DNA of 64,000 nt from a virus (lineage: Duplodnaviria; Heunggongvirae; Uroviricota; Caudoviricetes). Position 1 is the stretch's first letter. Each line of letters starts with the position of its first letter. Both the position numbers and the translations under genes were made by a program. Positions 31,144-64,000 of this stretch are shown in pieces. The stretch lies in the IMG/VR virus record IMGVR_UViG_2565956721_000002. The stretch is one strand, 5' to 3'. Below the pieces are notes generated by a model. That model was not told the DNA's origin. It saw nothing but the letters and a program-made list of their open reading frames with translations, and searched no databases.

Positions 31144-32187
31144 GTGAAAGCCGTAATTACTCCCTTTGTACAGAAAGAGCTTGGCCTCGCCACGTTCAAA
31201 GTGGATCAGGAGGTCAGAAAGCTGGTGGAGGCTGGCCGTAAATTTATTATGGAGCCGGTGCCGCGTGAGTTAATCGAGCACATGGAAGACGGCCTCGTTG
31301 TTACCGAGCAAACCATGGCAACAAATGAGGCGTTGCAGCCGTTTTTTAACAGCGATGAACTGTTTCGCCGTATTGGCGGAATTGACGCGCTGGTGGCGTG
31401 GTTGCGTAGGAAAGAGGGTCAATGCCAGGCCGCAGATCGTAGTTGGTGTGACAATCATATTGTCCACGCTGAACGAGACAATAGCGCGGTGTTGTTGTGC
31501 TGGCATCACGATAACCATTACCGGATGCGTGGTTTTAATGAGCTGAAAGAAACGCTGCACAATAATCGCGTTAACTGGATACTGGATGTCGCCCGTCAGG
31601 AAATGGGCCTTTCAAATAGCCATGATTTAAGTATTCAGGAGCTGTGCTGGTGGGCTTTCATGCGCAACATGATGCACCTGATGCCGGAAGAAGTCTGCCG
31701 CATATCAATAAATAAGATGAAGGCTACTCCGCAGGATAGCGGACCTCTGAAAGAGGCGGATATTCGCCCGTATGACGATCGCGCTACAGCATATGTTCAG
31801 ATGATGGAAGAACGCGCCGCGCCGATGCGTGCAAAAGTATGCCCTGTGGATGTTGACTCCGACCCTGGCATGGCGCATTTCAAAATACCAAAACTGCGAT
31901 CGCTAAAATTACCTGAGTACATGGACTTTGTTGCTTCCCGTCCGTGCTGTGGGTGTGGAGCTGCGGGAGCTGGCGCTCACATTACGCCTTATATCGTTCG
32001 TCATAGTCGATTATGCGCGCATGACATTTACGCAATTCCTCTGTGCCAGTCATGCCAGCGTGATATTGAGCGTGACCGCGATAATTGGGAGAAGACGCAC
32101 GGTAGGTTGGCGATGCATCAACGATTGTTCTTTGATTACGCGCTTGGAGTGGGCGTTATCACAAGTCATTCGTCGAGTGTTAGATAA
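31144..32187 (+). CDS. Cys/His-rich protein (pdcB position)
   Basis: 347 aa, GTG start with AAAGGTG RBS; clusters CWHHDNH and CCGCG...CQSCQ; lies between doc and lpa. Confidence 0.5.
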
Positions 32188-37068: not shown

Positions 37069-37102
37069 ATAACTTCGTATAGCATACATTATACGAAGTT
37101 AT
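37069..37102 (+). other. loxP site-specific recombination site
   Basis: exact ATAACTTCGTATA-GCATACAT-TATACGAAGTTAT (13-bp inverted repeats around the 8-bp asymmetric spacer). Confidence 0.98.
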
Positions 37103-37291
37103 CTTAAGGGTTATTGAACATGATCAATTTACCTGTAAATCCATACAGTTCAATACCTTATCAGGTCAAATAGTGATCACTTGATCATTTGATCAAGGTT
37201 GCGCTACGTAAAATCTGCGAAATGTTGGCAGTGTTAGTGCTCCAGATTTCGCGTAGCGCACTTAGCACCACCAATCAATCAGAGGTGAAAA

Positions 37292-55950: not shown

Positions 55951-58927
55951 TATTTAGCTCCTTTGCCACACCTAATAACAGTTCCAGCAATCCGTCACCA
56001 TTCATCAGTGATGCGGCAGCGGCCTCTTTGTCATGATACAACTGAAGAGCCATAGAGAATACTTCCGTTGCTGACGTTTTGGAAATAGTCGGTGATTTCT
56101 GCCGAATTTTCCCGGTGTTACTTACTGAGGCTGGCGGGTATACCTTCGCCATATAAATATTACTCAATCGAGATCTGAAGCACCATTCAGGCTTGCCACG
56201 CCCACCGATATTGACGAAAGATGGCTTATCCCCTTCAACATTGGCCTTCAGGAATGACCGGGCTTTCTCTAACAAACCAGGGTTACTGTACTCAAGATGA
56301 TGACCCAGCTCGTGCCACAGTGCACTTGCATTTTCATCGTTCAAATTGACAGCAACAACACCATTTAGATTTGCATATGCCCTTCCCTGGTGGTGAACCA
56401 CTTTTGATAAGGTCGATATTTTCCCGCCGGTCAGGCGATAAATATCAGCAAGTTCCTTGCGCAGGTCTATCCCACCATTCTGTCCAGCGCGGGCTTCTTC
56501 CACTTCTTCCGTGATAAAAGAGTCGGCCCACTCAAGAGCTTTTTCTTCAGATACGGATGAGTTTGCGATCGCACTGTTCATGGCAGATAACACTTTCTCG
56601 TGGACCGAACCCATACTTCGCTGATTCATTTGCCAGCGTGTCTGCGGGTTATATGAGAATCGCTTAAGTAGTTGGTCAAGCTGCTCAAGTTCTTCTTCAC
56701 TGACATACTTTTTAGCCTCACCAATAATGCCAGGGAGAATATTGCCGTTAGGATTAAACGCTCGCGACAGGAAGAGTTTCAGCGCCCCCATGCCCTCCGA
56801 TGCTTCAATATCACCAATAACCCGGTTAACAATGGCCGCACTCTTCGGATTAGCATCCGCCAACGCTCTGGCTACGATTTGCAGGGACGATACGACCTCA
56901 CGCTGCATATCAGTCCTGATCTCATCAATAAACTCTGGCGTTATGCCGTGCTCTTTAAGGATATCCCGGCCTTCCGCCGTTACCCCATCGATATCACCGA
57001 CATGTTTATTAACACGACTTTGCAATGCCTTAAATGCCTTCAGAATTCCACGGGCATCATCCGCTTTACTAACGGCCTTCCTGAATGCTGGCAAGAAGTC
57101 TGAGTTAACCTCATTTTGTTGATCGGCCCACTGAATGGAGGCTTCTTTCATCTCGTCCAGAGTCAGATCACCCAACGCGGTATGGTCTGTGAATATGAGC
57201 GACAACCTCTGAACCATTTCTGCCAATGGTGATGCCGAATGCGCCGCGCTAAGGAATGCTTTCACCCTGGTTGGGCGAATGGAAAACCAGTCAATAGCTG
57301 GTGGCATATCTCCGTTTTTTATCGCCTGCGCTATCTCGTCAAAGCCATCGCGCCCAAGGGAGGATGCGTGATTTAACAAGCCGCGAAGTAACGAATTGCT
57401 GATACCGAATAATCGGCACCATTTTTTCACGTCGGCAACAGGCATTCGAACAAAATGCGCAAGCACTTGTACAAGCTGTTCATCCTGGGGATCTGTGCGG
57501 GAAAGCAGCCTGATCAGATGAATAATGTCTTTGATGCCGGATGCCCGATGTAATAGCAAACTGGTATACGGAGCAACACCGTTGTAACTACCGCCGGAAA
57601 CGGACTCGAAAAGACCGCCGGATATCCCTTGCATGCCTTCGTTTTCCAGTTCCTGAGACACCTGGCGAAGGATATCCTGTAACGACACATCGCCGCCGCC
57701 AAACATATCCCCCAGCGCCTGGCCCTGGTGCTGTAACTCATCATTGATACGTTGAGCCATCAACTTAAAGGCGGTGGCCATACGCTTCGCGCTACGGTTA
57801 TTCGCGACGATGAACAACGCGAGTGCTTTCACTTCCGGGGCCGTTTCGCTGAACATATCCCCCTGAGCAATAACATCGGTAATATGCTGGCCTGACTCCT
57901 TCGATTGCCTTACCAGGTCTACCGCATCTTTCAATGCCGCCAGCGCCTTTTTATCGAGGCTATCCGCTGTCTCAATGCCATCAACAATAGTTGTCACAGC
58001 CTGCTTGTGCGCTTCTCCTGATAAAGCCTGCATCTGGACAAAATCATTGGCTGCCGCATTAAGCGCCGTCAGAACATTACGCATATCCGGATCAGGTTCT
58101 TCTGCAACCATCCTTACCAGGCGCGCATCCTTATATGCCTTGGCAAAGATCGCGTTTTGTATACGGTCTACAAGTTGCCGTGTTGGTCGCCCATCTTCAG
58201 TTACAAGGCCAGCCGCCTGTGTGGCACCAACTTGCGTCATGAATCCGCGAATAAACGCGTCATTACTGCGGCTAAGCAGATCTCCGCTTTCTGACGGATT
58301 AAACAGCGCCATCATCGCCGGTGTTATGCTGTCGGCATCAACAAAAGCCTTTTCACTGGCTGCCATTTCCTGAAGATCAGAAATATTTGAGTCCTTGGCA
58401 AACTGAACGCGGTCAACCTTAGTTAACCGGCGGCGCACCAGTACCGGAGCCGTCATTGATTCAACCTTTTCAGGAGGTATGCCGAATTCGGTCGCATGTT
58501 CAATCAGGTACTCACGATACCGATCCGCATTGCCGTCCTGATAGGCTTTGATGATCCCCATAGTCCGTCCATTACCTGACTCAACGGCATTGTCCTCACC
58601 AATTATCGGCGCGCCATGGCTGGATAAACCGGAATCGGTAAGCTGAGCAGGCCGCAAATCTTTGGATATCTGGTTAACCTGAAGAAGGCTGGATGCGCGG
58701 GTCCGGTCGCGCGGCTGAAGTTCCTGGGGATAGTCAGGATTAATTTTCCCATCCAGAGTATTGGATATCAAAAGAGCTGAGGCATCGACGATATCAAACG
58801 CTGTTTTTACCTCGTCTCCCTTCGCTGTCACCACATACGAAACCCGCCCATAATCGGGCAGGTTCTTTAGCAGCTCGATCAGCGTTTCTATGCTGGTGGC
58901 CATTACCACCTGATCGCTTAAGCTCAT
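55940..58927 (-). CDS. ddrB: large Dar-operon protein (P1 DdrB position)
   Basis: 995 aa immediately downstream of ddrA/darA on the same strand; named by synteny and size. Confidence 0.5.
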   Translation of the reverse strand: MSLSDQVVMATSIETLIELLKNLPDYGRVSYVVTAKGDEVKTAFDIVDASALLISNTLDGKINPDYPQELQPRDRTRASSLLQVNQISKDLRPAQLTDSGLSSHGAPIIGEDNAVESGNGRTMGIIKAYQDGNADRYREYLIEHATEFGIPPEKVESMTAPVLVRRRLTKVDRVQFAKDSNISDLQEMAASEKAFVDADSITPAMMALFNPSESGDLLSRSNDAFIRGFMTQVGATQAAGLVTEDGRPTRQLVDRIQNAIFAKAYKDARLVRMVAEEPDPDMRNVLTALNAAANDFVQMQALSGEAHKQAVTTIVDGIETADSLDKKALAALKDAVDLVRQSKESGQHITDVIAQGDMFSETAPEVKALALFIVANNRSAKRMATAFKLMAQRINDELQHQGQALGDMFGGGDVSLQDILRQVSQELENEGMQGISGGLFESVSGGSYNGVAPYTSLLLHRASGIKDIIHLIRLLSRTDPQDEQLVQVLAHFVRMPVADVKKWCRLFGISNSLLRGLLNHASSLGRDGFDEIAQAIKNGDMPPAIDWFSIRPTRVKAFLSAAHSASPLAEMVQRLSLIFTDHTALGDLTLDEMKEASIQWADQQNEVNSDFLPAFRKAVSKADDARGILKAFKALQSRVNKHVGDIDGVTAEGRDILKEHGITPEFIDEIRTDMQREVVSSLQIVARALADANPKSAAIVNRVIGDIEASEGMGALKLFLSRAFNPNGNILPGIIGEAKKYVSEEELEQLDQLLKRFSYNPQTRWQMNQRSMGSVHEKVLSAMNSAIANSSVSEEKALEWADSFITEEVEEARAGQNGGIDLRKELADIYRLTGGKISTLSKVVHHQGRAYANLNGVVAVNLNDENASALWHELGHHLEYSNPGLLEKARSFLKANVEGDKPSFVNIGGRGKPEWCFRSRLSNIYMAKVYPPASVSNTGKIRQKSPTISKTSATEVFSMALQLYHDKEAAAASLMNGDGLLELLLGVAKELNNAD

Positions 58928-58939
58928 CCCTGTTACGCC

Positions 58940-59305
58940 TTATGCTGCCTCTTTAATGTTGGCGGCTATCCATGCCGCCGTGTGCTGTTTAACCTGGTCC
59001 AGGTCGATGTATGTGCCAACATATTGACTCAAATCCTGCAAGGTACCGATAAATGCATCGGTGCTCTGATCGACGAATTTATCAGCCAGGAAATCAGCAA
59101 CCAGTTTTGGCACACCATCATGTACCGAAGGTTGTTTTTCCTCGCCACTACTGCCGCCGGACACACCGTACCCCATCTGTTGCATGATCTGGTCAATTTC
59201 ATCGCTGATATCCAGCAACTCCATGCCACTCGCGGTAGCCGCTTTGGACATCAGAGCATCCAACTTATCGCTGAGATCCATTAACTCAATAGCTGATAGT
59301 GTCAT
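58940..59305 (-). CDS. ddrA: Dar-operon protein (P1 DdrA position)
   Basis: 121 aa, acidic; 4-nt overlap with darA stop; named by synteny. Confidence 0.5.
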   Translation of the reverse strand: MTLSAIELMDLSDKLDALMSKAATASGMELLDISDEIDQIMQQMGYGVSGGSSGEEKQPSVHDGVPKLVADFLADKFVDQSTDAFIGTLQDLSQYVGTYIDLDQVKQHTAAWIAANIKEAA

Positions 59306-61221
59306 GCCGCTACCCCCGCTTTCTGGATTGCTACCAACAGATCAGCCAGGTGGCGAGCTGCGCCGTTAACCAGCTCTTCGTTTTCCTCAAAACGTCCGGC
59401 AGCCTGAAGGGCTGCAATCGCTTCCCGGACATTGCCCCGGGCGTTACGGATCTCCGCCATGTCAGTGCTTTGTATATCCATCACGTTATTGAGATATTCA
59501 ATGGCTTTATTAGCCTCTGCATCTGCTTCGCTAACCGTTTCATCAGGCTGTGCCGGGGCCGGTTCTGGCTGAGTAATCTCACCGACTTCGGCCTGCAATG
59601 CATTGATCATGCTCTGCACCATTTTCTCGGTGCCAGCGCCCCCAGGAAACGCAATATTGGAGAAAGTTTTTTGAAACTGAGTTTTCAGCATTACGCGGAA
59701 CTCGTCTGGTGAGCTGGTGGCCAGCTCCAGAGCTTTTTGTGCATATTTGCCAAACGGACCATTAGTAAGTGTCTTCGCCAGGAAGTCGAAAGAATCCTCG
59801 CGAGGCAATAACTTCAGGTCGTACTCACTCATTTGCTGATCAGAAAGCGGGGTATCGTAAGTAGCAATGCCGTAGCGTGCATATTCATAATACGGGTCAC
59901 CTTCATCAGGGCGCGGCAGAATTGCTTTGTTACCTTCAGGTATTGCGCCAGGGGCCGCCGGACGCATTTGCAGGGCATATCGATATGCACCTACAGAGAC
60001 TTCTGGTTCAGGCGAAGAGCTACCGGTATCCTCCGCTGGTTCAGGTTCGACGTTTTCCGGTTTATGTTCTTCTGGTTGGACCAGGTATTCCGATACATTA
60101 CCCGCTTTATAGGCTTTAAACAGCTTGCCGATCGCATCTGCCATGTCCACACCCTGTATGGATTTAGCCTTGATCATGTATACGCTGCCATCCGGATCGG
60201 TTAACTGGATATACCCTTCGCCGCCCCCAATGAATTGCTTCATTGATGCACCATTACTGAGCGTCACTTCCCCGTCCATATGCATACGATTTTTGATACT
60301 GGCAAGGCGATCCGTCAGCGCGCGAGAGTGCCCACCAGTCATCCCCGCTGGAGCAATGGTACCGCGCCCACCAGTGCGATTGAGCTGATCAATCTCCGTC
60401 TGCAAACGCTCATTCTCTTCATAAAGAGAATCCGCTTCCGATGCAACAGCGTTAATTTTCTGCTCCAGATCTGCCTTCTGCCCTTCTACCGCTGCCACCT
60501 GATCCGCGAGGTCGCTCATGGCATCCTCTTTCTGGTCACTGTCAGCCTGTAGTTGGGTTATTTCATCAACAAGGGCTTTTTTCTTCTTCTGCGCACGCTG
60601 GAATTTTGCCGAGTTTTTCTCTGCAAGGTTGGCAAGTTTCATGGTGACCTGCGCCAGCGTCATATCACGTCCACTCATCGGAGCAACGGTGTGAGTAACG
60701 TCTTTTTTATTCAGTAAGAACTGGAAAGCAACCAGCGTATCGCTATTGGTGATCCGGTTTTCCGCTGTCGGGCTATGAAACAGAATGCTGATAGTCTGAC
60801 CATCACTGAGCGGAATAATGGCTGGCAAGACCGGCAGCCCGTTAACGTTACGTGCCCGGCCAATTTCAGCGCCGCCGATCGCGCGCGCGCCGCTCTGGGC
60901 CACATCCCCCGTTTTATCACTCCCCGCAGAGATTCCGGTACCATTCAGCTTCTGGTTCAATGCCCGGACAAATGCCTGCATGGTCCGGTGTAACTGCAAA
61001 CGAGTAGAACTAATCGCCTCCAGTAAATCCGTAGCACACCAGTGGATCGGCGTGTCATAGAAGAACGTAGCCTCGATTTCCTCCAGGGTGTTGGATTCCG
61101 TCATCAGATAGCGGTCCTCACCGGCCATTAATGCGCGATATTCATCATCAGTCACTGGCGGGGGAAGCACGTCAAGCCCAGGCTTGATCGTCACCCCTTT
61201 ATTGATATTGAACTGTTCCAT
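59302..61221 (-). CDS. darA: antirestriction / head internal protein DarA candidate
   Basis: 639 aa (matches P1 DarA precursor size as recalled) between hdf and ddrA. Confidence 0.6.
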   Translation of the reverse strand: MEQFNINKGVTIKPGLDVLPPPVTDDEYRALMAGEDRYLMTESNTLEEIEATFFYDTPIHWCATDLLEAISSTRLQLHRTMQAFVRALNQKLNGTGISAGSDKTGDVAQSGARAIGGAEIGRARNVNGLPVLPAIIPLSDGQTISILFHSPTAENRITNSDTLVAFQFLLNKKDVTHTVAPMSGRDMTLAQVTMKLANLAEKNSAKFQRAQKKKKALVDEITQLQADSDQKEDAMSDLADQVAAVEGQKADLEQKINAVASEADSLYEENERLQTEIDQLNRTGGRGTIAPAGMTGGHSRALTDRLASIKNRMHMDGEVTLSNGASMKQFIGGGEGYIQLTDPDGSVYMIKAKSIQGVDMADAIGKLFKAYKAGNVSEYLVQPEEHKPENVEPEPAEDTGSSSPEPEVSVGAYRYALQMRPAAPGAIPEGNKAILPRPDEGDPYYEYARYGIATYDTPLSDQQMSEYDLKLLPREDSFDFLAKTLTNGPFGKYAQKALELATSSPDEFRVMLKTQFQKTFSNIAFPGGAGTEKMVQSMINALQAEVGEITQPEPAPAQPDETVSEADAEANKAIEYLNNVMDIQSTDMAEIRNARGNVREAIAALQAAGRFEENEELVNGAARHLADLLVAIQKAGVAA

Positions 61222-61222
61222 G

Positions 61223-61834
61223 TTAATTTCCTGCTTTCAGTTGCTTAAGACGGCGTTTGAGTTCGCCATTTCGGGCCTTTTCGTTATTGAGTCGGCCTGT
61301 CTCCTTATCCAGCTTCGCCCGCAAATCAGTGATCTGCTGTTGATTGAAAGACACCGAGTTCTGCGCTGATTTATAAGCGGCAACCACCTGAGCATTCCGC
61401 TGTTTTGCCTCTTGCAGGCGCTGAAAGTTGGATTTTACTGCCGGTTTCTTGTCTACCGGATTGGCAACACGTTTCGCTTTGGCGATCAGTGATTTCTGGA
61501 ATTTTGCGGAGTTTTTGCGGGCCGCTTGCCCCATGACGGTACCAAGCGTCTTGATATCCGGCGATTGAGCGTTAGGAATAGCTTTTCCATTCAGCCTCAC
61601 AGACGATATATCGCCAGTATCGTTTACCTGTATGGCAAGAATTTGTCCGTCGTTAAGAACCAGCTTTGCGGTTTTAACTTTAACGCCATCTTTCGTTGTT
61701 GCGCGGTTGCTGGAGTCAACCTCAATTACCGTAACACCGGTTTTATTGATCGCCGCGATAAGGGATTTCAGCCCCTTTTCATTAACCTGGTCAAAATCGA
61801 CCGTTGCATACTTATTTTTCGTCATCTGACACAT
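61223..61834 (-). CDS. hdf: Hdf-position protein
   Basis: 203 aa upstream of darA; basic coiled C-terminus; named by synteny. Confidence 0.5.
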   Translation of the reverse strand: MCQMTKNKYATVDFDQVNEKGLKSLIAAINKTGVTVIEVDSSNRATTKDGVKVKTAKLVLNDGQILAIQVNDTGDISSVRLNGKAIPNAQSPDIKTLGTVMGQAARKNSAKFQKSLIAKAKRVANPVDKKPAVKSNFQRLQEAKQRNAQVVAAYKSAQNSVSFNQQQITDLRAKLDKETGRLNNEKARNGELKRRLKQLKAGN

Positions 61835-62255
61835 CCTGTGCGAGATTTATTACGTAACTTCTGCGGATTTGCTGAGTAACAGGGAAAATCCGATACAACG
61901 GGTTAATGAACGAGTCGCCATGCGTAACCATGACGTTGAAATGCCACAGTCGCTCTCCTTTACCCATATATTCAGTGGGTATGTACAACCATTCACTGTT
62001 TTCGCCCTGTTCAGCCGACGTCAAACAACGTTGTTCGCCTTCAATCACTGTCGTCGGCTTCTGAACATCGCGGATCCAATATCTGACCGTTGCGCCGCGC
62101 AAAAACGGGAATTTAGACCGGTATTTGAACGGCACCCGGATGAAACCCGGTTTAATTTCCACATCACCAAGTTCTAAATGCGTGATGTCCTTGCGTTTTA
62201 GCAAATAGCGATCGGCTAAGGCTAACGCAAGAACGCATACACCCCAGCCAATCAT
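61812..62255 (-). CDS. lydB: antiholin/lysis determinant candidate
   Basis: 147 aa following the holin-like gene, as in P1 lydA-lydB. Confidence 0.5.
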   Translation of the reverse strand: MIGWGVCVLALALADRYLLKRKDITHLELGDVEIKPGFIRVPFKYRSKFPFLRGATVRYWIRDVQKPTTVIEGEQRCLTSAEQGENSEWLYIPTEYMGKGERLWHFNVMVTHGDSFINPLYRIFPVTQQIRRSYVINLAQDVSDDEK

Positions 62256-62581
62256 TTCCCGCCTCCCTTTTTCACCAAACTTGTAAGAACATTCAGAATG
62301 CTATCGATATTCACTCGTTTCATCCCTGAAATCACCTCATGACCGTTATTGCTGGCTATCGTTACCATTAAGTACGTAATTGATAACTCCCAGCCCTCGT
62401 GTTGCCCCAATAGGTACGCCACCGCGCCAGCTGTCACTGCAACAAAGATCTCCGTAACCAATCCCAACAAATTGCCAGACTGGCGACCGTCTCGGACATC
62501 CATCAGGAACGTGCCTATCCCACCAATTACTGAAAGCAGGAGCGCAATAGCAACTGGAGCTAATTCCTGTGTGTCAAGCAC
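62252..62581 (-). CDS. lydA: holin candidate
   Basis: 109 aa with two hydrophobic helices (VAIALLLSVIGGIGTFL, IFVAVTAGAVAYLLG) and charged C-terminus. Confidence 0.55.
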   Translation of the reverse strand: MLDTQELAPVAIALLLSVIGGIGTFLMDVRDGRQSGNLLGLVTEIFVAVTAGAVAYLLGQHEGWELSITYLMVTIASNNGHEVISGMKRVNIDSILNVLTSLVKKGGGK

Positions 62582-62655
62582 AAGTTCCCTCCTACGTTGT
62601 CAGGAGGTAATGGTATGCAAAGTAACTTCTCAACCGGTTATGTTGCATAAGAGAC

Positions 62656-62919
62656 TTACCTATTCAACCGACTTTTGGAACCTTCAATAATAAGCCTGCT
62701 ATTGGCGCTGAAAATAAGAACCATGCAGCTCTGAAGGCTTTCATTCATATCCTTATATTCCGCGAGATACATGCCAATAAAGCCAGCAAGTACGGCGGAA
62801 ATACATTCGGCCAGCAATTTCTTGCATGAAGACTCGTAACGGTTTTCACATAGCCCACTCAAATACGAATACACCCCACCAAGAAGGGATAACATCACGA
62901 TATGTACATAAAATGTCAT
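62656..62919 (-). CDS. small membrane protein, first gene of the lyd/dar operon
   Basis: 87 aa, two hydrophobic segments; AGGT upstream. Confidence 0.4.
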   Translation of the reverse strand: MTFYVHIVMLSLLGGVYSYLSGLCENRYESSCKKLLAECISAVLAGFIGMYLAEYKDMNESLQSCMVLIFSANSRLIIEGSKSRLNR

Positions 62920-63046
62920 TTTTTACCTATACAACAGTAAGTTGAACAACATCTGAGAACGGTATGCACTTTGTGATTTCCACACACACTGGTTTTGTTA
63001 ATTAAAACCTGTAGCTTGCAATAAATAACGATAGTGGGCAGAAAAT

Positions 63047-63240
63047 ATGCTAATAGGCTATGTACGCATATAGACAAATGAACAAAACACAGCTATGCAG
63101 TGAAAAGCACTTGAAAGCGCAGGATGTGAGCTAATTTTTGCGAATAAGGCGAGCAGCAAAAAGGCTGGGCACCTTGGGTTAAAAAAGGTTCTGCGTATGC
63201 TTTCCAGAGGTGATACCCTAGTCTCGGGCTAGGGACAACA
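63047..63240 (+). pseudogene. DNA invertase (Cin/Hin/Gin family) N-terminal remnant
   Basis: reads MLIGYVRI(stop)TNEQNTAMQ(stop)KALESAGCELIFANKASSKKAGHLGLKKVLRMLSRGDTLVSG(stop), alignable to the invertase N-terminus but with in-frame stops and the C-terminal two-thirds missing; convergent with intact cin. Confidence 0.6.
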
Positions 63241-63354
63241 TTTCGAGGACAGTTTTCATTAGCGGTCAGCAGGCGCTAGATACATCGAATTGATGTGCCG
63301 CGCGATAAATGTACCTATTCTATCAAGATAAATTACACCGACGCGGCATTAGAA

Positions 63355-63927
63355 TTACAGCTCAGATTGAGTTTGGCGCTTCTCTACAGGATGATAACGA
63401 TAAATCGTCGATACACCGATATCGTAAATAATTGCCAACTGTTTCCTGCTGTAGCCATTTTCGATCAACCTCGCTATTTGCTCATGTTGTTCTTTTGTCA
63501 ACTTCGGGCGACGTCCGCCAATGCGTCCCTGTTCGCGTGCAGCTGCCAGTCCGGCCAGTGTTCTCTCAACAATTAATTCACGTTCCATTTCTGCTAAAGC
63601 CCCCATGACGTGAAAAAAGAAACGCCCCATGGGTGTTGATGTGTCAATACTGTCTGTCAGACTACGGAAATTAACACCTTTTTCCCGCAACTCCTCTATA
63701 AGCGTGATAAGGTGTTTCATACTTCTGCCAAGCCTATCCAGCTTCCAGACAACCAGCGTATCTCCTTCTGATAACGTTCTGAGCAGCTTTTTCAAGCCTG
63801 GTCTGGCTGACTTTGTTCCGCTTATTTTATCTTCAAAAATCAGTTCACATCCTGCGCAGTTCAGTGCATTTCTTTGTAAATCTGTGTTTTGGTCATTTGT
63901 TGACACACGAATGTAGCCAATTTGCAT
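63355..63927 (-). CDS. cin: Cin DNA invertase (serine recombinase)
   Basis: start at ATG 63927 (MQIGYIRVSTNDQNTDLQRNAL...); catalytic Ser region and C-terminal HTH as in Hin/Gin/Cin. Confidence 0.9.
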   Translation of the reverse strand: MQIGYIRVSTNDQNTDLQRNALNCAGCELIFEDKISGTKSARPGLKKLLRTLSEGDTLVVWKLDRLGRSMKHLITLIEELREKGVNFRSLTDSIDTSTPMGRFFFHVMGALAEMERELIVERTLAGLAAAREQGRIGGRRPKLTKEQHEQIARLIENGYSRKQLAIIYDIGVSTIYRYHPVEKRQTQSEL

Positions 63928-64000
63928 GAAAAACAACCTCTTTGTTTAGTTAAAAATACATCGTTGGTATAGGTAGGGATTAAGACTAAAACGTTGGTTT

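Follow-up and report, generated by a model that had tools for sequence, protein, structure and literature searches.

The closest described counterpart of the locus analysed here lies in p15B. Sandmeier et al. are said to have found in 1991 that a truncated 5′ region of an invertase gene is located beside min, which was named psi-win and is reportedly highly homologous to cin of phage P1; the psi-win enhancer was reportedly inactive and was reactivated by two substitutions. In 1992, Sandmeier et al. reportedly read the Min system as a substitution of a Cin-like system. The enhancer of the Din invertases (sis) comprises two Fis-binding sites approximately 48 bp apart in the 5′ coding region, and invertases of the Cin family use secondary (quasi) sites at low frequency. 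Truncated cin genes have been reported for other P1-like plasmids, and the P1-like plasmid pJIE250-3 carries a reversed invertase with 98.5% identity to p15B Min (PMC6906374). A reversed Min-type gene of this kind is also found in the element studied here, which is represented by a stretch of 64,000 nucleotides of Caudoviricetes DNA (IMG/VR record IMGVR_UViG_2565956721_000002), referred to as the window. Its right end was compared with P1, p15B and further relatives.

Colinearity with P1 and p15B

The following features were assigned to the left part of the locus:

62656-62919, minus strand: lydC, putative holin, an 87-amino-acid ORF annotated as LydC in the sister phage vB_EcoM-673R5 and in P1
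62958-63046, plus strand: remnant of the P1 cin promoter and 5′ untranslated region, by alignment to P1 31570-31659 read against the annotated −35, −10 and RBS of P1cin
63047-63223, plus strand: psi-cin, corresponding to codons 1-59 of P1-type cin, by translation, Pfam, tblastn and codon comparison with P1
63071-63073: stop 1, TAG in place of the catalytic Ser9
63101-63103: stop 2, TGA in place of Arg19
63223/63224: substitution junction, ...GGTGATACCCTAGTC / TCGGGCTAGGG... (TCGGG...), by the blastn end point and alignments

Megablast analysis of window positions 60000-64000 against phage genomes yielded P1-like sequence of approximately 95% identity through darA, hdf, lydB, lydA and lydC, which stopped at 63223. 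Likewise, blastn directly demonstrated colinearity of window 58398-63223 with P1 27000-31836 (95.9% identity), with lydC as the last conserved P1-type backbone gene left of the scar.

Notes in the P1 GenBank record map p15B (X62121) onto P1, and all four mapped segments were reproduced by the window:

p15B 7728-8294, P1 30674-31240: 99% according to the note; window 62072-62638, 99.8%
p15B 7483-7638, P1 31346-31499: 84% according to the note; window 62730-62883 (lydC region), 85.1%
p15B 7147-7408, P1 31570-31832: 89% with one gap according to the note; window 62958-63219 (262 nt), 90.1% with one gap
p15B 6463-6533, P1 31684-31754: 83% according to the note; window 63833-63903, 83.1%

Spacers of 75, 92 and 614 bp separate the segments in the window, compared to 75, 90 and 614 bp in p15B, and the window is consequently colinear with p15B X62121 nt 6463-8294 as mapped onto P1. 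Judged by the coordinates and identities in the P1 GenBank notes, the locus has the p15B arrangement. The stub at 63047-63223 (psi-cin) is what we take to be psi-win, the truncated invertase pseudogene beside min in p15B of E. coli 15T-. Both are situated between lydC and the 3′ end of min and agree in orientation, in the 262-nt length and in the distance of 614 bp to the min enhancer, in a comparison made through the coordinates and identities given in the P1 record rather than base by base with X62121. In addition, the product of the intact gene next to the stub exactly matches an old UniProt entry, Q05517. The stub is an ordinary evolutionary scar and has reportedly been documented already for p15B; its value is that of an annotation point, and small as a discovery.

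The stub and its decayed control region

The plus-strand frame starting with the ATG at 63047 translates as MLIGYVRI*TNEQNTAMQ*KALESAGCELIFANKASSKKAGHLGLKKVLRMLSRGDTLVSG* (asterisks, stop codons). With the stops masked, this translation matched the Pfam Resolvase profile PF00239 with 32.7 bits (E=9e-8; cutoff 23.3 bits) over profile positions 2-68 of 145, and tblastn with P1 Cin as query against the window detected residues 1-59 with 81% identity (E=4.5e-26). The match to the serine recombinase profile is thus significant, but the open frame is lost at Ser9 by the TAG codon. Only 59 of the 186 cin codons are retained, and HTH_7 and a complete catalytic domain are absent. A Cin-type N-terminus with in-frame stops, cut after the GDTLV block, had been predicted originally, and Pfam, tblastn and blastn all support this description at levels far beyond chance; its end, however, lies at 63223 and not at 63240.

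At the nucleotide level, the stub together with its upstream region showed 89.5% identity to P1 over 267 nt (blastn, E=6e-95). In this alignment window 62958-63223 corresponds to P1 31570-31836, for which the P1 record annotates the predicted P1cin promoter, the RBS, the cin start codon (31660) and the enhancer (31678-31749). Alignment to cin and other invertases, as had been proposed for tracing the source, identified P1 cin as the closest, with 20 of 177 nt differing; the range for cin of P1, P7, D6 and SJ46 was 20-29 of 177 nt. The stub thus shares position, promoter region and codons 1-59 with P1 cin (NC_005856, 31660-32220) but lacks codons 60-186, the HTH domain and the overlapping cixL. 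Because of the colinear position beside lydC and the attached cin promoter region, 63047-63223 is by its sequence the remnant, or ortholog, of P1 cin in its native place and orientation.

The 20 nucleotide differences from P1 are distributed over 17 codons, of which 11 carry missense or nonsense changes and 6 silent changes only; beyond the two stops, nine codons are affected by missense changes. Comparison of relative rates, using P1, SJ46 and the stub of the E. fergusonii plasmid pHNCF11W-130kb with P7 and D6 as additional references, clearly demonstrated accelerated decay: 13 lineage-specific changes were counted in the stub and 1-2 each in the three others, and 11 of the 13 fall on codon positions 1 or 2. 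Since the lydC region is also unusually divergent from P1 (85% identity), part of the 10.5% divergence may be older than the truncation and reflect a different cin allele rather than decay. Nevertheless, the relative-rate test argues that most of the divergence is specific to the stub. Among five other carriers, the stub and the 131-bp filler which follows it differed from the window by approximately 1.4-1.7%, the lyd genes by approximately 0.4% and min by approximately 0.35% (excluding one carrier with a different min allele); as the differences are few and the carriers related and thus non-independent, this comparison is taken as supporting evidence. At 63174 (codon 43, CTT), the T of the window is a private substitution of this lineage, as P1 and each of the five other carriers show a C at this position. 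Taken as a whole, psi-cin is a pseudogene, in all likelihood a nonfunctional scar and not a working element.

The control elements of cin were located in the stub region by alignment to P1, and the Fis sites were placed by the Fis consensus and by analogy to the literature on Hin and Cin:

62977-62982, plus strand: homologue of the predicted P1cin −35, TTTCCA
63003-63008, plus strand: homologue of the P1cin −10, TAAAAT changed to TAAAAC
63036-63038, plus strand: Shine-Dalgarno homologue, GAG changed to GGG
63065-63136, plus strand: homologue of the P1 cin recombinational enhancer (P1 31678-31749), by P1 annotation and alignment
63068-63082: putative Fis site I, ATATAGACAAATGAA compared to GTATCAACAAATGAA in P1, with three changes including an outer G
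63117-63131: putative Fis site II, GCGCAGGATGTGAGC, the same as in P1

All three changes in putative site I are specific to the stub, and the old cin enhancer is presumably inactive. The conservation of putative site II could be due to chance, over only 15 bp, or to residual constraint. The old cin region has probably also lost its promoter function; a promoter scan detected no sigma-70-like promoter on either strand of the stub, and searches of 62500-64000 against Rfam gave no match at E≤1. The C1-repressor operator consensus ATTGCTCTAATAAATTT matched 15 times in the window with up to three mismatches, compared to 0.34 matches expected (positions 1546, 5068, 5079, 15499, 19123, 19172, 21264, 32189, 36462, 36926, 37009, 38570, 39046, 49159 and 53008), which is consistent with a P1-type immunity network, and none of the matches is located in 62900-63400. 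Control of lydC through a C1 operator, as in P7, was consequently rejected for this locus: there is no operator near the stub, and the upstream region of P7 is not homologous.

The sequence TTAATTAAAACC (62998-63009), regarded in the original prediction as a crossover half-site, overlies the −10 homologue; at this position P1 has ...TAAAATCC, also given as TTAATTAAAATCC, which is its annotated P1cin −10. A crossover site was defined by two 12-bp half-sites in inverted orientation that flank a 2-bp core (…AAACC-NN-GGTTT…), and the genuine sites of the element read CTTCCCCAAACC-AA-CGTTTTAGTCTT (also noted as CCCCAAACC-AA-CGTTTT). After TTAATTAAAACC, the sequence continues with TG-TAGCTTGCAATA, which does not match as a right half-site. 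Moreover, the half-site pattern TTNNYNNAAACC occurs six times in the window with 5.5 occurrences expected. Being present at chance frequency, without a second half and homologous to the P1cin −10, TTAATTAAAACC was discarded as a cix, mix or hix half-site. Positions 62992-63010 form a perfect 6-bp inverted repeat, GGTTTT-GTTAATT-AAAACC, probably by accident; P1 has GGTTTTT...AAAATCC, from which the repeat derives by deletion of one nucleotide and replacement of a T by a C.

The min gene and the replaced segment

To the right of the junction, the following features were assigned:

63224-63354: 131-bp filler that separates the junction from the min stop codon, attributed to the incoming cassette
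63349-63335, minus strand: weak terminator-like hairpin just past the min stop
63355-63927, minus strand: min, intact gene for a Min/Pin-type serine DNA invertase of 190 amino acids with Resolvase and HTH_7 domains
63833-63903: homologue of the enhancer, within min, aligned to P1 31684-31754
63982-64000: first crossover (mix) site of the inversion region, AAGACTAAAACG-TT-GGTTT..., cut by the end of the window

The product of the intact gene matched the Pfam profiles Resolvase and HTH_7 with 174 and 56 bits, respectively, and is an exact match to UniRef Q05517_ECOLX, 'DNA-invertase'. Its amino acid identity is 82% to PinE of e14 and 74% to P1 Cin; the gene itself is 69.8% identical to P1 cin DNA and lies in the opposite orientation. 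Nucleotide homology to e14 is restricted to 63487-63928, excluding the 3′ end of the gene and its flank. An intact cin convergent with the fragment, as first described, is therefore an intact invertase gene of the Min/Pin type and not cin, and should be named min (pin-like). The distance from 63223 to its stop codon at 63355 is 131 bp instead of the approximately 115 bp estimated before. Likeness to e14 Pin and p15B Min concerns this neighbour and not the stub, and like p15B min the gene is transcribed away from an invertible region with multiple sites in both orientations. In the enhancer within min, both putative Fis sites have the canonical form.

The region beyond position 64000 was followed in the near-identical sister phage vB_EcoM-673R5, in which the mix site continues as ...GGTTTGGGGAAG. 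The core CCCCAAACCAACGTTTT was found at least five times in both orientations over approximately 3 kb right of min (~15982, ~16420, ~16910, ~18516 and ~18960 of the segment examined). This region has the composition of a Min-type multiple-inversion region. Crossover sites, for which inspection beyond position 64000 had been proposed, are thus present there in the sister phage, but they belong to a Min-type multisite region and not to a C segment. Only past a run of tandem repeats of approximately 300 bp does the sister phage match P1 again, from P1 37095 onwards, a position in the constant part of the tail-fibre gene S. P1 31837-37094, comprising the rest of cin, cixL, the C segment, cixR and part of S (~5.3 kb), is accordingly swapped for approximately 5.4 kb of other DNA. 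These data identify the element as a P1-like phage-plasmid of the p15B/Min type and not of the Cin type.

In the same phage, positions 19303-20646 of the segment contain five tandem repeats of approximately 300 bp in the constant part of S, each approximately 75% identical to the repeated elements of P1 at 37095-37241. In the vB_EcoM-673R5 record, the annotation of min is split into Hin1 and Hin2, and the stub shows single-base deletions in A-runs (window-equivalent 63158 and 63181); both the split min and the deletions in the stub probably represent homopolymer sequencing errors and not biology.

The junction at 63223/63224 follows codon 59 (GDTLV) and is the same in five other carriers. With the sequence GATACCCTAGTC/TCGGGCTAGGG, it does not contain an AAACC-NN-GGTTT core. 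From approximately 63291 the filler shares homology with the DNA that follows the 3′ end of chromosomal min/pin-like invertase genes. For the 67 bp at 63224-63290 no donor with a matching left end was found, as the chromosomal relatives match only from approximately 63291. In the chromosomal example inspected, the homology breaks off at the border of a prophage remnant next to flgA, which is uninformative with respect to the donor. This example, positions 1579-3724 of a segment of the E. coli Ecol_448 chromosome, carries a min/pin-like invertase gene and tail-fibre remnants directly beside flgA; its identity to window 63291-64000 is 73%, and it resembles a small cryptic prophage remnant. The 3′ two thirds of cin were detected neither in the 64-kb window nor in 28 kb of vB_EcoM-673R5, where only min matched, with approximately 70% identity.

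Origin and spread of the scar

Searching PLSDB, 457 plasmids showed any match to 62900-63380, and at least 147 of them covered at least 80% of it, including the stub, the junction and the 3′ end of min; two phage records, 99.4-99.8% identical, also share the junction. Presence in all P1-like genomes as an identical element is not observed, the stub being confined to a Min-type subset, which comprises at least 147 of the 457 matching plasmids. Five carriers were inspected base by base, and all have the junction in common. In pCFSAN004177G_03, which was aligned in full, both stops are present, and the substitutions listed for the other four carriers all lie outside the stop codons. The common junction and the retention of both stops indicate one origin for this type of stub. 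The plasmid pMTY1886_NA2 carries the same stub and junction next to a min allele (1956-2528 of the segment examined) that differs at 35 of 573 nt, and its homology to the window is lost at approximately 63955, implying a later exchange right of the scar.

Stubs of other types are found in relatives. Salmonella phage SJ46, E. fergusonii pHNCF11W-130kb and E. coli pCARB35_01 likewise possess 5′ cin remnants beside lydC followed by non-P1 DNA, and SJ46 also has a convergent pin-like invertase gene. Unlike the stub in the window, they break at approximately codon 78-79 or codon 70, are joined to other downstream DNA and carry other lesions, namely, a stop at codon 5, a 1-bp deletion and an 11-bp deletion; they are also much less decayed, with 1-2 lineage-specific changes (SJ46 and E. 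fergusonii) compared to 13. The respective positions in the segments examined are 692-916 and 1048-1468 (SJ46), 3149-~3385 (pHNCF11W-130kb) and 3090-~3300 (pCARB35_01). Given these independent stubs, which differ in breakpoint and in downstream DNA, truncation of cin from its 3′ side is a recurrent outcome of cassette turnover at this locus.

Very probably, the stub in the window is the left-over of the substitution of a Cin cassette by a Min cassette. An ancestor with the P1 arrangement (lydC, cin, cixL, C segment, cixR, S) would have undergone recombination replacing the DNA from codon 60 of cin up to a point inside the constant part of S; the C segment with cixL and cixR would have been lost together with the final two thirds of cin. 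The incoming DNA would have been a tail-fibre inversion module of the Min/Pin type that brought several mix sites, alternative 3′ ends for the tail fibre and a pin-like invertase gene whose transcription runs away from the invertible DNA. Since no donor with a matching left end was found, the crossover mechanism can only be inferred; the left crossover, inside cin, appears to have been illegitimate, and the direction of the event would have been a substitution into a Cin-type ancestor. Left behind would have been the cin promoter region, the RBS and the first 59 codons including the enhancer segment. No longer under selection, the stub would have drifted, with Ser9 turned into TAG, a second stop, mutations in the −10 and the Shine-Dalgarno sequence and the loss of one putative Fis site, and present-day inversion would be carried out by Min via its own enhancer inside min. 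The stub can thus be read as a dated scar at the left edge of a host-range cassette swap. Scars of this type can be used to trace the movement of tail-fibre and host-range modules among P1-like phage-plasmids, many of which carry resistance genes.

The original prediction was right in reading the fragment as a decayed, truncated pseudogene left by an earlier rearrangement at the edge of the invertible-segment region; the two mechanisms suggested for it did not stand up to analysis. Duplication of the resident invertase gene followed by decay would explain the presence of two invertase-related sequences at most approximately 130 bp apart. The stub, however, differs from the adjacent min at 59 of 177 nt and in 39% of the residues (61% protein identity), compared to 20 of 177 nt for P1 cin. 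Moreover, its upstream 89 bp are homologous to the promoter region of P1 cin and not to the region upstream of min, and it occupies the native position of cin beside lydC, so that a duplication can practically be dismissed. Aberrant inversion or deletion by Cin or Min between a true site and a quasi-site inside cin would place a break close to the invertible region, as is the case, and the low-frequency use of quasi-sites by these enzymes would in principle permit it. This origin of the junction is nevertheless very improbable, given that the junction lacks a cix- or mix-like core and that neither the window nor the 28 kb searched of the sister phage contains a reciprocal product with the 3′ part of cin. 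Right of the junction lies a complete foreign gene with its own 3′ flank instead of inverted P1 DNA, and the proposed half-site, occurring at chance frequency, is 215 bp away from the junction.

Retention of the stub for a role in cis, either as an auxiliary Fis or enhancer element for Min or in divergent regulation of lydC, was considered as well. Putative Fis site II is unchanged from P1, the stub persists in at least 147 plasmids and through the later exchange of the min allele in pMTY1886_NA2, and P7 is annotated with a lydC C1 operator just upstream of cin. Persistence, however, is equally expected of a neutral stretch of 300 bp between two needed genes, and the stub and filler are more variable among carriers than the flanking genes. 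Putative Fis site I differs from P1 by three changes specific to the stub, one of which affects the outer G, Min already has its own enhancer with both sites canonical, and the enhancer of p15B psi-win was reportedly inactive unless two nucleotides were changed (Sandmeier et al. in 1991). No C1 operator is located in 62900-63400, compared to 15 elsewhere in the window, and neither a sigma-70-like promoter on either strand of the stub nor an Rfam match was detected. Such a role is thus quite improbable, and substitution of the cassette, leaving a nonfunctional remnant, is the reading we prefer.

At least 5-6 independent cin stubs were counted, with breakpoints from cin nt ~48 to ~236. That tail-fibre cassettes of P1-like phage-plasmids are preferentially exchanged with their left boundary in the 5′ end of cin seems rather unlikely; such a preference could result from a local recombination hotspot or from a constraint that keeps the lydC-proximal region, possibly including the intact putative Fis site. 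Alternatively, breakage would be random, with viability as the sole filter. SJ46 and E. fergusonii pHNCF11W-130kb both break near cin codon 78-79, only a few bases apart, and are joined to different DNA at this point. Truncated blast matches in phi456, NZ_CP062884 and NZ_CP127308 suggest still shorter stubs, ending at cin nt ~48 and ~121.
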